A stretch of DNA of 20,170 nt from a virus. Taxonomy: Duplodnaviria; Heunggongvirae; Uroviricota; Caudoviricetes. The position numbers are program-made. Positions 12,001 to 18,000 of this stretch are shown here, piece after piece. The DNA lies in IMG/VR virus record IMGVR_UViG_2698536369_000009. One strand, 5' to 3'. Position 1 is the stretch's first letter. Every line of letters starts with the position of its first letter.

Positions 12001-15000
12001 GGAGGCAGGCGATGAAAACATTTCGCTGGAAAGTGAAGCCGGATATGGAGGTGAACTCGCAGCCATCGGTGCGTGAAGTGCGTTTTGGTGACGGGTATTC
12101 GCAGCGTATGGCGGCGGGGCTGAATGCTGACCTGAAAACATACCGTGTGACGCTTTCCGTGACCCGGGAGGAGGCCCGACATCTGGAGGCATTCCTGGCA
12201 GAGCACGGTGGCTGGAAGGCGTTTCTGTGGACACCGCCTTATGCCTGGCGGCAGATAAAGGTGACCTGTGCCGCCTGGTCATCACGGGTTCGCATGCTGC
12301 GGGTTGAATTCAGCGCGGAGTTTAAGCAGGTGGTGAACTGATGCAGGATATTCACGAAGAAAGTCTGAACGAGTCGGTTAAATCAGAGCAGTCACCGCGG
12401 GTGGTACTCTGGGAAATCGACCTGACGGTACAGGGTGGTGAGCGGTATTTTTTCTGCAATGAGCTGAATGAAAAAGGGGAGGCGGTTACCTGGCAGGGGC
12501 GGCAATATCAGGCATACCCGATTGACGGCAGTGGCTTTGAGATGAACGGGAAGGGCAGCAGTGCCCGCCCGTCGCTGACGGTGTCGAATCTGTTCGGTCT
12601 GGTCACCGGAATGGCGGAGGACCTGCAGAGCCTGGTGGGGGCCACGGTGGTCCGCCGCCGGGTGTATGCCCGTTTTCTGGATGCGGTGAATTTTGTGGCG
12701 GGCAATCCGGAAGCGGACCCGGAGCAGGAGCTGAGCGACCGCTGGGTGGTGGAGCAGATGTCAGAGCTGACGGCCATGACAGCCTCGTTTGTGCTGGCAA
12801 CACCGACGGAGACGGACGGAGCGCTGTTTCCCGGTCGCATCATGCTGGCGAACACCTGTATGTGGGATTACCGGGGAGATGAATGCGGGTATAACGGTCC
12901 TGCGGTGGCGGATGAGTTCGACAACCCCACCACGGATATCCGTAAGGACAGATGCAGCAAGTGCATGCGCGGGTGTGAGATGCGCGGCATGGTGGCTAAT
13001 TTTGGCGGTTTCCTTTCCATTAACAAACTTTCGCAGTAAATCCAATGACACAGACAGAATCAGCGATTCTGGCGCATGCCCGGCGGTGTGTGCCTGCGGA
13101 GTCGTGCGGCTTCGTGGTGAGAACGCCGGAGGGGGAGCGGTATATCCCTTGTGTGAATATCTCTGCAGAGCCGGAGGCGTATTTTCGTATTGCACCGGAA
13201 GACTGGCTGCGGGCAGAGATGCAGGGGGAGATTGTGGCACTGGTCCACAGTCATCCCGGTGGTCTGCCCTGGCTGAGCGAGGCCGACCGGCGGCTGCAGA
13301 TAAAAAGTGCACTGTCCTGGTGGCTGGTCTGCCGGGGGGAAATTCATAAATTCCGCTGTGTGCCACATCTGACAGGACGGCGCTTTGAGCACGGGGTGAC
13401 GGACTGTTACACGCTGTTCCGGGATGCCTACCATCTGGCGGGAATTGATATGCCGGATTTTGAGCGTGAGGATGACTGGTGGCGCAACGGTCAGAACCTT
13501 TACCTGGACAATATGGCGGTCACCGGCTTTTACCGGGTGCCCCTGTCCTCTGCACAGGCGGGCGATATTCTGCTGTGCTGCTTTGGTGCTTCGGTACCGA
13601 ACCATGCCGCCATTTACTGCGGCAACGGTGAGCTGCTTCACCATCTGCCTGAACAACTGAGTAAACGGGAGAGGTATTCCGAAAAATGGCAACGACGAAC
13701 GCATTCTGTCTGGCGTCACCGCCACTGGCACGCATCTGCCTTCACGGGGATTTGCAACGATTTGGCCGCCGCCTCAGCCTGTATGTGAACACGGCAGCGG
13801 AAGCCATTCGCGCCCTGTCGATGCAGATGCCGGGCTTTCGCCGTCAGATGAACGAAGGCTGGTACCAGATACGTATTGCCGGTGATGACACGGCACCGGA
13901 GGCGGTGTATGCCCGTCTTCACGAACAGCTGGGTGAGGGAACGGTCATCCACATTGTGCCGCGACTGGCCGGGGCCGGAAAGGGTGGACTGCAGATTGTG
14001 CTGGGGGCGGCAGCCATCGTGGGCTCTTTCTTCACGGCCGGAGGCTCGATGGCGTTATGGGGTACAGCCCTGAGTGCCGGTGGTTTTTCTGCCACCACGA
14101 TGCTGTTTTCACTGGGGGCCAGCATGATTCTGGGCGGTGTGGCCCAGATGCTGGCCCCGAAGGCAAAAACACCGGATTACCGCGCAACGGATAACGGCAG
14201 ACAGAACACGTACTTTTCCTCGCTGGATAACATGATTGCCCAGGGGAACCCGATGCCGGTGCCTTACGGTGAAATGCTGGTTGGCTCCCGCCGTATATCC
14301 CAGGACATCAGTACCCGTGATGAAGGCGGTGACGGGAAGGTGGTGGTTATCGGGCGGCAGGCATAAAAGCGAAAAAATCCCGCAGTGCTCACGGACAGGA
14401 ACTGCGGGAGAGTTACGAAGATTGAGTGTAAGGAATTATTCTTATGTCACGACAAAAACATTAACTCAGAGAGGGAGGATGTGCCGTTCTTTTCAGGGAG
14501 AAAGGATTTATCGTCCTGAGGAATAAAGGTAAGGGGCCTGCCCCTTACCTGACTGATTATTGAATGATGCCGCAGGCCATTCTCGCACCACCACCGCCCA
14601 GGGGCTCCGGATGGTCATGATGGTTATCACCGCCAGCATGAAGCATGAGAGAACGCCCTTTAATCTCTTTTAATGAGTTCAGTCTCGGGGCCAGGACCGG
14701 GTAGTTCGCTTTTCCGTCATGCGTCACGAACAGCGCAGGGAGGTCGCCCAGGTGTCCATCCGGAGACCAGGGGCCAAGATGTTTGCCGGTGTTTTTCGGG
14801 TCAAAGTGACCGCCAGCCGATAATGCTGCGACCGGTTTTCCGTCTTTCAGTGCCGGGGCGCAATTTCCTTTTTCGTGCACATGAAAACCATGAATGCCTT
14901 CAGACAGAGAGTGAAGGGCTGGTGTGAACAGCAGACCGTAGGGGGTCTCCTGAATGGTTATTTTTCCAATGCTGACTTCTTTTCCGTCAGCACTGACAAG

Positions 15001-18000
15001 GTTCATTGGGACTTCCTGTTCTGCTGCGTATCCGCATGATGCTGCTGTCAGCATGGCAATGGCAGCAATGATTTTACATTTCATAAAACCCTCATTAATT
15101 CCGTTAACAGACTGAGCTTGCTGGTTACAGGGTAACAAACAGCGTTCTGATGATATCGCGCAATAGCTGTGCAATATCCTATCACTGCGATTAATAATAC
15201 CAATTGAGAGGAACATTATGGGTAAAGGTGGCGGCAGGGCGCACACGCCGGTTGAGGTAAAGGACAATCTTAAGTCCACGCAGATGATGAGCGTGATTGA
15301 TGCCATTGGTGAAGGGCCGATTGAAGGTCCGGTGAAGGGGCTGCAGAGTATCCTGGTGAACAAAACCCCGCTGACGGACACGGACGGCAATCCTGTGATA
15401 CATGGTGTGACAGCGGTCTGGCGCGCCGGGGAGCAGGAGCAGACACCACCTGAAGGCTTTGAGTCCTCCGGGGCGGAAACCGCACTGGGCGTGGAAGTGA
15501 CGAAGGTAAAGCCGGTGACGCGCACCATTACGTCCGCGAACATTGACCGCCTGCGGGTCACCTTCGGGGTGCAGTCACTGTTGGAGACCACCTCAAAGGG
15601 CGACCGTAATCCCTCTTCTGTCCGACTGCTGATTCAGTTGCAGCGTAACGGTAACTGGGTGACGGAAAAGGATGTCACCATTAACGGCAAGACCACCTCA
15701 CAGTACCTGGCGTCGGTGATTCTGGAGAATCTGCCTGAGCGGCCCTTTAACATCCGGATGGTCCGGGAGACAGCGGACAACACCTCGGACCAGCTGCAGA
15801 ATAAGACGCTCTGGTCGTCATACACCGAAATCATCGATGTGAAACAGTGCTACCCGAACACGGCGATTGTGGGGTTGCAGGTGGATGCGGAGCAGTTTGG
15901 CGGTCAGCAGATGACGGTGAACTACCATATCCGCGGTCGCATCATCCAGGTACCGTCAAACTATGACCCGGAAAAACGCACGTACAGCGGCATCTGGGAC
16001 GGCAGCCTGAAACCGGCATACAGCAACAACCCGGCCTGGTGCCTGTGGGACATGCTGACTCACCCGCGCTACGGCATGGGAAAACGTCTGGGGGCGGCAG
16101 ACGTGGACAAATGGGCGCTGTATGCCATTGCGCAGTACTGCGACCAGACGGTCCCGGATGGTTTCGGGGGCACAGAGCCGCGGATGACCTTTAATGCGTA
16201 CCTGTCACAACAGCGTAAGGCGTGGGACGTTCTCAGTGATTTCTGCTCGGCGATGCGCTGTATGCCGTTATGGAGCGGCCAGACGCTGACGTTCGTTCAG
16301 GACCGCCCGTCGGATGTGGTGTGGCCGTACACCAACAGCGATGTGGTGGTGGATGATAACGGCGTGGGGTTTCGCTACAGCTTCAGCGCCCTGAAGGACC
16401 GCCACACGGCGGTGGAGGTGAATTACACCGACCCGCAGAACGGCTGGCAGACCTCCATGGAACTGGTGGAAGACCCGGAAGCCATACTGCGCTACGGGCG
16501 CAACCTGCTGAAGATGGATGCGTTCGGCTGCACCAGTCGCGGTCAGGCCCACCGTGCCGGGCTGTGGGTGATAAAGACCGGACTGCTGGAAACGCAGACG
16601 GTGGATTTCACGCTCGGGTCACAGGGGCTGCGTCACACACCCGGTGACATTATTGAAATCTGTGATAACGACTATGCCGGGACCATGACCGGCGGACGTA
16701 TCCTGTCCATCGATGCCGCCAGCCGCACCCTGACACTGGACCGTGAGGTGACCCTGCCGGAGACAGGTGCCGCCACGGTGAACCTGATTAACGGCAGCGG
16801 TAAGCCGGTGAGCGTGGACATCACTGCACACCCCGCGCCGGACCGGATACAGGTCAGCACCCTGCCTGATGGTGTGGAGACATACGGTGTATGGGGGCTC
16901 TCCCTGCCGTCACTGCGTCGTCGCCTGTTCCGCTGTGTCTCCATCCGGGAAAACACGGACGGCACCTTTGCCATCACGGCGGTGCAGCACGTACCGGAAA
17001 AAGAAGCCATCGTGGATAACGGGGCCAGCTTTGAGCCGCAGTCAGGCACCCTGAACAGCGTTATTCCACCGGCAGTGCAGCACCTGACGGTGGAGGTGAG
17101 CGCGGCTGACGGTCAGTATCTGGCACAGGCGAAATGGGACACGCCGCGGGTGGTGAAGGGTGTGCGCTTCAGTCTGCGCCTGACCAGTGGAAGCGGTGAA
17201 AACAGCCGCCTGGTGACCACCGCCATCACCGCAGACACGGCGCACCGTTTCAGTGGCCTGCCGCTCGGGGAATACACCCTGACAGTCAGGGCAATTAACA
17301 GTTATGGCCAGCAGGGCGAACCGGCCACCACCACCTTCCGGATTAACGCGCCAGCAAAACCCGCCACCATTGAACTGACGCCGGGGTATTTTCAGATAAC
17401 GGCGGTCCCGCGTCTTGCGGTGTATGACCCGACGGTACAGTTTGAGTTCTGGTTTTCGGAGACAAAAATCGCAGACACATCTCAGGTGGAAACCTCTGCC
17501 CGTTATCTGGGGACCGGCAGTCAGTGGAGTGTATCCGGCCCGCACATTAAGCCCGGGAAGGATTTCTGGTTTTACGTGCGCAGCGTCAACCTGGTGGGGA
17601 AATCTGCGTTTGTGGAAGCCAGTGGCCGGGCCAGCAATGATGCAGAAGGGTATCTGGGGCTGTTTCGGGAAAAAATAGGAAAACTGCATCTGGCTCAGGG
17701 GCTGTGGGAGCTGATAGACAACAGCCAGCTTGCGGATGAGATGGCGGAGATGAAGACCACCATCACCGAAACCCGCAATGAAATCACACAGACGGTCAGT
17801 AAAACGCTGGAAGACCAGAGCGCCACCATTCAGCAGATACAGCGCGTGCAGAAGGACACAAATGATGACCTTGCTGCACTTTACATGCTGAAGGTACAGA
17901 AAACAAAAAATGGCATACCCTATGTTGCCGGTATTGGAGCGGGGATTGAGGATACTGATGGCCAGCCCCTGAGCAACATACTGCTGCTGGCTGACCGTAT

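Follow-up and report, generated by a model that had tools for sequence, protein, structure and literature searches.

The spacer between tail genes I and J

The stretch of DNA considered here, called the window, comprises 20,170 nucleotides of a Caudoviricetes virus (IMG/VR record IMGVR_UViG_2698536369_000009) and corresponds to the late genes for morphogenesis in a lambda-like prophage, with terminase at one end and the tail fibre gene at the other. The element of interest is the spacer between the tail genes I and J. It holds a gene for a copper- and zinc-dependent (Cu,Zn) superoxide dismutase (SOD), sodC, on the minus strand and, next to I, a piece of DNA that resembles the gene of the small RNA PasB. 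In phage lambda the I-J spacer measures 60 bp (from the end of I at 15444 to the start of J at 15505), while in the window it extends over 851 bp (14367-15217) and has a GC content of 0.45-0.55 compared to 0.58-0.62 in the flanks. The initial annotation of the window had given the end of I, the start of J, the length of the spacer, a minus-strand open reading frame (ORF) of 175 amino acids, and a 133-bp divergent spacer between this ORF and J, all of which proved exact to the base (Table 1). The two minus-strand hairpins it had seen downstream of sodC are also there, and are referred to as T1 and T2. Its description of sodC as a cargo gene, antisense to the tail operon and lodged between I and J, is borne out as well, and lambda and many lambdoid relatives are without sodC.

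Table 1. Features of the I-J spacer and its surroundings, in positions of the window
Feature	Position	Strand	Remarks
sodC (sodC-F1 allele)	14557-15084	-	175 codons + stop; ATG at 15084, stop at 14559-14557
Signal peptide of SodC, residues 1-20	15025-15084	-	lipobox-like AASC at residues 14-17
T1, sodC terminator hairpin	14527-14550	-	10-bp GC-rich stem, then UUUAUUCC; begins 7 nt past the stop codon
PasB/EcOnc22-family small-RNA gene body	14369-14455	-	position, core, terminator; native promoter gone
T2, hairpin of the PasB-like piece	14379-14409	-	9-bp stem; U6 tract at 14373-14378
Left junction of the sodC-specific segment	14472/14473		from alignments and blastn; end of homology, where the pasB-like -10 would begin
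Divergent spacer sodC/J	15085-15217		133 bp; sodC 5' untranslated region, presumed sodC promoter (minus strand), J ribosome-binding site (plus strand)
Tail assembly gene I	13686-14366	+	Pfam Lambda_tail_I, 1.5e-16; "tail assembly protein" in the 99.9% identical E. coli MEI003
Tail tip / host-specificity gene J	15218-18694	+	seven J-type Pfam domains; gpJ in the annotation of relatives

A secreted superoxide dismutase that is already known

A search with the 175-residue product, as the initial annotation had advised, returned matches to the Cu,Zn-SOD family with all of the metal ligands kept. Residues 40-174 match the Pfam family Sod_Cu (PF00080; 3.9e-32, 111.9 bits, cutoff 28.9), and residues 2-174 match the NCBIfam SodC equivalog model NF007628 (218.4 bits, cutoff 165). 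Among solved structures, the periplasmic enzymes of Haemophilus ducreyi and Yersinia and SodCI of Salmonella come closest (E ~1e-62). The Cu ligands H68, H70, H93, and H149 align with H46, H48, H63, and H120 of human SOD1, and the Zn ligands H93, H102, H111, and D114 with H63, H71, H80, and D83. In an alignment with SodCI and SodCIII all of these ligands are invariant, as are C75 and C171, the cysteines of the intrasubunit disulfide, and the active-site R168; R168 and C171 correspond to R143 and C146 of SOD1. The signal peptide carries a lipobox-like motif, and for SodC-F1 both signal peptidase I and II sites and a partial association with the membrane have been established by experiment (PMC2569942). 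Judged by its sequence, sodC of the window encodes a bona fide secreted Cu,Zn SOD, periplasmic and partly lipid-anchored.

The gene has been met before. Its coding sequence is identical to ECs_1989 in prophage Sp10 of E. coli O157:H7 Sakai, and over its full 851 bp the spacer has two mismatches to the I-sodC-J counterpart in Sp10, at 14411 and 14539. Base 335 is a T, giving Leu112, which marks the sodC-F1 allele as defined in PMC2569942. The exact protein occurs on at least 1000 public contigs, where it is named SodC. On these matches, the gene is the already known sodC-F cargo of lambdoid prophages of the enterohemorrhagic and enteropathogenic E. coli (EHEC and EPEC) type. In comparison with the Sp10 locus, the coding sequence, Leu112, the spacer, and the I-sodC-J order are alike; the I and J alleles on either side have diverged by about 6%, and otherwise there is no difference of substance.

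The two alleles sodC-F1 and sodC-F2, from the EDL933 prophages CP-933R and CP-933V, were characterized biochemically and genetically by D'Orazio et al. 2008 (PMC2569942). [quoted passage not shown] The SodC-F protein is dimeric and is more active and more stable than the chromosomal SodC, and its precursor is in part processed by signal peptidase II and in part bound to the membrane. Deletion of sodC-F lowers resistance to H2O2, so that more cells are killed by it. The initial annotation had proposed a raised resistance to exogenous superoxide; protection against an oxidant stands, but the published phenotype is sensitivity to H2O2 and not killing by exogenous superoxide (PMC2569942). The chromosomal SodC of E. 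coli (PDB 1eso) has the enzyme family, the ligands, and the periplasmic location in common with the window protein, with about 61% identity between the mature proteins. It differs in being monomeric, RpoS-dependent, confined to aerobic stationary-phase cells, and fully soluble (PMC2569942).

Boundaries and mobility of the module

When the window is compared with a sodC-less phage that carries Shiga toxin 2c (Stx2c), homology runs from within gene I, past the I stop, to position 14472, and homology to sodC-less relatives restarts exactly at the ATG of J (15218). Between these limits, the Stx2c-phage relative holds 133 bp of unrelated sequence. At the left junction the Stx2c phage reads GGCGCTAATAATT/TCTCTG and the window GGCACATCCTCCC/TCTCTG; against lambda, gene I is 77% identical in nucleotides up to 14356. 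Relative to the closest sodC-less relatives, the event is, on these alignments, a replacement, in which 745 bp (14473-15217) stand in place of about 133 bp. The initial annotation had described an insertion of 850 bp; it was right about the cargo but not about a simple insertion into a 60-bp gap. Its proposed nucleotide comparison with lambda and lambdoid relatives did fix the boundaries, and the content of the spacer is not common to all lambdoid phages.

The sodC cassette also supplies the ribosome-binding site of J, GAGAGGAACATT, which lies on the plus strand ahead of the ATG. A side observation concerns the same end of the spacer: just upstream of J, the sodC-less spacers and lambda carry a plus-strand terminator-like hairpin followed by a T-run (L002:2437-2470; L004:1461-1481), and the window is without it because the sodC cassette has replaced it.

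Over the 880 bp from 14343 to 15222, the window and Sakai Sp10 show 2 differences, as against identities of 94.1% in gene I and 93.7% in J. Read from this pattern, 14343-15222 is a mosaic block with its crossovers at the gene borders. Because 2 differences in the spacer block stand against about 6% divergence of I and J, the spacer is taken to have moved recently, as one unit, between diverged tail modules by recombination. Divergence from an Stx2a phage, too, falls abruptly from about 6% in I and J to 2 differences in these 880 bp, near-exactly at the intergenic region.

A probable promoterless member of the PasB family

The small RNA PasB of EPEC E2348/69 depends on Hfq, is 83 nt long, and has been confirmed by Northern blot, with 37 interactions in RNA interaction by ligation and sequencing (RIL-seq) (Pearl Mizrahi et al. 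2021, PMC8550237). From its coordinates (NC_011601.1, 1466343-1466261, minus strand; probe AATCCCGCAGTGATCGCGGAGCT; Table S6 of PMC8550237), it lies in the I-J spacer of prophage PP6, antisense and 6 nt past the I stop (I ends at 1466255 and J starts at 1466496). It aligns with positions 14369-14455 of the window, which have the same place right after the I stop and the same antisense orientation. In EHEC, the small RNAs EcOnc22, EcOnc23, and EcOnc24 of the Sakai prophages Sp15, Sp14, and Sp11 are about 85 nt long and are destabilised without Hfq (Tree et al. 2014, PMC4104026, Table S2). Once their coordinates are shifted by +136 to +143, each of them maps to this gene within the sodC-less I-J spacer (240 bp) of its prophage (L011:1345-1428, L012, L014), and they seem to represent the PasB family in EHEC. 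This link between PasB and EcOnc is absent from the 2021 table and from the text of a 2026 survey of the Pas small RNAs (bioRxiv 10.64898/2026.05.13.724894). That survey describes PasB as embedded in a phage structural operon, and its text makes no mention of sodC, EcOnc names, or promoters.

The traits of the family are a promoter, a conserved core, and a terminator followed by six or seven U residues. The promoter reads TTCACA-N16-TATAAT or AATAAT in the copies of E2348/69, the Stx2c phage, ATCC 25922, and E. coli cM8a. All eight members that were folded end in a 3' stem-loop and a U-tract. These folds were made on single sequences instead of as a consensus, and RNAalifold on a MAFFT alignment of ten PasB-like copies gave no pairs, with variable loops misaligning the 5' stem arms.

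The window copy shares with PasB and EcOnc22-24 its position, strand, length class, core (AAUAAyUCCUUA...AAUCUUCrU), terminator, and U-tract, and its T2 hairpin has a folding energy (dG) of -16.1, with 2 of 200 shuffles folding as well. It differs from them in sequence, at 70-72% identity (72% to EcOnc22 of Sakai Sp15), and in having lost the native -35 and -10, so that only the body of the gene is left. The promoter-bearing copy of the Stx2c phage is far closer, at 97%. The 106 bp in common with sodC-less spacers (14367-14472) recur in every relative examined. In the window and Sp10 copies, the native -35 and -10 are replaced by sodC-cassette sequence, which abuts the breakpoint with GGCACATCCTCCC; both promoter hexamers are lost because the breakpoint (14472/14473) falls at the edge of the -10 element. 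A scan of 14200-15400 found no promoter-like site in place of the lost one, and Tree et al. 2014 list no Hfq peak at the sodC-linked Sp10 copy (PMC4104026). For these two reasons, the window copy is most likely a silent remnant. Exactly at the gap between I and sodC that holds the PasB-like piece, the locus tag ECs_1988 is absent from the current Sakai annotation (L015, between ECs_1987 and ECs_1989), apparently the call of a small ORF that was later dropped.

Other identities for this piece were tried and rejected. At the gathering threshold, an Rfam scan of the whole window gave no match, and a permissive scan of 14300-15300 gave sub-threshold matches only. Among these, archaeal snoRNA matches were put down to chance, and so was a match to the Salmonella small RNA STnc400 at 14517-14593 on the minus strand (24 bits against a gathering score of 80, E 0.047), which is driven by the terminator and covers the 3' end of sodC and T1. 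AgvB and AsxR were set aside because their published sequences are unrelated to the conserved unit and their Rfam models do not match, and PasA, PasC, and PasD because those small RNAs lie near the Q/lysis region.

Placement and prevalence

The sodC-specific segment (746 bp in this survey) is found in 547 of 5426 complete E. coli genomes, in up to five copies each, and with at least 99% identity in 542 genomes. The carriers are mostly O157, O145, O111, and related strains. The I-sodC-J order is seen in 540 genomes and in two Stx2a phages. The initial annotation had singled out this placement for checking; the I-J slot is confirmed and is nothing unusual: it is the standard one for sodC-F (the 540 genomes and Sakai Sp10) and is also that of sodCIII in the Salmonella prophage Fels-1. 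Its precedents in Salmonella and in O157 prophages hold for prophage-borne sodC in general, although sodCI of Gifsy-2 lies outside the I-J slot.

Fels-1 sodCIII (STM0924) resembles sodC of the window in its I-J slot, its antisense orientation, and a divergent spacer to J, here of 144 bp. The proteins, however, share 60.5% identity, and the two genes are unrelated in their upstream DNA; the stops of sodCIII and I are just 53 bp apart, with no PasB-like piece between them. Gifsy-2 sodCI (STM1044) is likewise prophage-borne and reverse-oriented within the tail cluster, and its product is dimeric and stable with a similar pattern of expression (D'Orazio et al. 2008, PMC2569942). Its place is between a lom-like gene (after M) and L instead of between I and J, its protein is 58.8% identical, and its upstream DNA is again unrelated. 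When the DNA upstream of sodC-F, sodCIII, and sodCI was aligned, no regulatory sequence common to the three emerged.

E. coli cM8a has a sodC variant (80% amino acid identity), also between I and J, and beside it an intact, promoter-bearing pasB-like gene. The promoter kept at this locus suggests an older order of I-pasB-sodC-J. The sampled I-J spacers of E. coli without sodC are about 240, 342, or 913 bp long; those of Stx1 and Stx2c phages and of Sakai Sp11, Sp14, and Sp15 are of the 240-bp kind.

Expression of the module and competing explanations

T1 is called by a terminator scan and folds with a dG of -17.4 (z -3.4), a value reached by 0 of 200 shuffles. The initial annotation had assigned two terminator hairpins to sodC. 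This is correct for the stop-proximal hairpin T1, which is the only one that belongs to sodC, but not for the I-proximal T2, which ends a PasB-like small-RNA gene that sodC-less spacers also carry. In the Hendrix/Juhala sense of a moron, sodC lies between genes that are adjacent in related phages, has a terminator of its own (T1 and its T-run), and diverges in base composition (GC). As for a promoter of its own, a strict promoter scan gives no consensus site and a relaxed one a weak candidate, and the published record offers the lacZ fusion and the presence of the protein in lysogens (PMC2569942). A PhoP-box-like match picked out by eye in the upstream region was rejected as too weak.

The explanation favored here, with a probability of about 0.93, is that the I-J spacer is the known sodC-F cargo module beside a promoterless remnant of the PasB family. 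The enzyme family, the ligands, the identity with sodC-F, the boundaries, the prevalence, and the position of the small RNA were computed, and expression, activity, and phenotype are taken from the literature. The remaining steps, which are the position of the promoter, the silence of the small RNA, and a back-stop role for T2, are what we infer. In a lysogen, the late (tail) operon is off and sodC is transcribed antisense to the silent tail genes; its promoter probably lies within the 133-bp spacer or a little further upstream, and transcription would stop mainly at T1. The precursor is exported by its signal peptide with the lipobox, in part as a lipoprotein, and the Cu,Zn enzyme clears periplasmic superoxide, which makes the cell more tolerant of external oxidative attack. 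In the lytic cycle, the late transcript, modified by Q, would presumably cross the module to express J. The T2 hairpin of the remnant may provide a back-stop, preventing antisense transcription from entering gene I.

Several points weigh against this explanation. A strict sigma-70 consensus scan of 14200-15400, the 133-bp spacer included, found no promoter; a relaxed scan gave a weak candidate on the minus strand at 15203-15176, TTGGTA-N16-TAGGAT preceded by TG; and the cited sodC-F literature gives no mapped promoter (PMC2569942). The U-tract of T1 is imperfect, so some read-through into the PasB-like piece may occur. That piece is only 70% identical to the validated PasB. No Rfam model covers the PasB family, and a permissive scan of three sodC-less spacers named no family for the repeated unit. 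Finally, the EcOnc coordinates refer to the older Sakai record NC_002695.1, and their offset to NC_002695.2 comes from a single anchor, AgvB1; the full 44-nt AgvB pattern of the supplement has no match in Sakai, and it was its 21-nt core that matched and gave the offset.

One alternative keeps the small RNA alive. The PasB-like piece could have been captured as the distal 3' untranslated region (3'UTR) of sodC-F, so that transcripts reading through T1 would run to T2 and be processed to an Hfq-binding PasB-like small RNA that tracks sodC-F transcription. In enterobacteria, 3'UTRs are a well-established source of small RNAs. The whole transcribed body, the terminator, and the U-tract have been kept, with the breakpoint just at the -10 element; the U-tract of T1 is weak; and the piece travels with sodC in one low-divergence block. 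T1 is, however, a strong 10-bp GC-rich hairpin, and the near-identity of the copies reflects recent spread and is silent on selection for the piece. Hfq peaks, moreover, are listed at the promoter-bearing Sp11, Sp14, and Sp15 copies and none at the Sp10 copy (PMC4104026). Capture as a 3'UTR is considered unlikely.

A second alternative reverses the direction of the event. Here, the long spacer with the order I-pasB-sodC-J would be the old state, and the short spacers of lambda and of sodC-less Stx phages would be deletions, with nothing inserted. An old association of sodC with the I-J junction is indeed indicated by the use of one slot and one orientation for three diverged forms of the gene, namely sodC-F, the cM8a variant (80% at the amino acid level), and Fels-1 sodCIII (60%). 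The sodC-less spacers, though, are not simple deletions, for they carry 133 bp of unrelated sequence that includes the pasB-like promoter and the plus-strand hairpin. The left junctions of sodC-F and the cM8a variant also differ, the regions upstream of sodC-F, sodCIII, and sodCI are unrelated, and the GC content of the sodC-specific segment is below that of the flanks. Finally, the 99.8% identity of the module stands against 6% divergence of the tail modules around it, a sign that it has spread laterally in recent times, and an ancestral long spacer is held to be improbable. That sodC is an inactive passenger, decaying or not expressed from this position, could draw on the failure to detect a consensus promoter but is scarcely credible for an intact ORF that has all catalytic residues and the same coding sequence as a gene that is expressed, yields an active enzyme on purification, and matters to the phenotype (PMC2569942).

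What is known and what is added

The sodC moron itself adds nothing new: a 2008 paper already described the gene along with its product, regulation, and phenotype, and it is named as a matter of routine in public annotation. What is added is the exact boundaries, the modular block of low divergence, and the position of sodC-F beside a PasB-family gene that has no promoter. Neither this juxtaposition nor the loss of the promoter is described in the PasB survey preprint or in D'Orazio et al. 2008 (PMC2569942).

The I-J junction of the lambdoid tail module can be regarded as a cargo slot whose usual occupant is an antisense gene for an Hfq-dependent small RNA (PasB in EPEC, EcOnc22-24 in EHEC). 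For annotation, this means that the second "terminator" is not that of sodC. For surveys of small RNAs, it means that about 10% of complete E. coli genomes hold PasB-like copies without a promoter, which a search by sequence may score as genes. Capture as a 3'UTR, if true, would tie an oxidative-defence moron to a prophage small-RNA regulon.

Other spacers and the prophage as a whole

Some sodC-less spacers have contents of their own. In E. coli 2015C-3905 (NZ_CP027371.1), the I-J spacer of 913 bp has no annotated gene and consists of four tandem PasB-like units that are 63-77% identical (L008:800-1714). The terminator hairpin is found in all four, the third having a different stem sequence that still pairs, and a recognisable -10 is present in three, the second unit being without one. 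Such tandem arrays are not described in the published PasB survey (bioRxiv 10.64898/2026.05.13.724894). Extraintestinal strains (ST131, ST69, ATCC 25922) commonly have the spacer of about 342 bp, which is made up of a PasB-like gene and about 180 bp of unannotated sequence with the GC-rich hairpin aaaaccccggtatctgctgataccggggttt (ATCC 25922, L009:960-1143).

The window as a whole is 98-99% identical to, and collinear with, a prophage of E. coli MEI003, a non-O157 strain whose genome is the one most like it. The RefSeq start of the homologous I coding sequence is the position equivalent to 13785. Beyond the tail fibre genes, the MEI003 prophage (99.9% matching) carries nleB2, a truncated nleC, a frameshifted nleH, and nleF (L001:22613-25770), and the prophage abuts zinT and msrPQ. 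Because type III effector genes lie downstream in the MEI003 prophage, the phage of the window is probably an effector-carrying prophage of the "exchangeable effector locus" kind.

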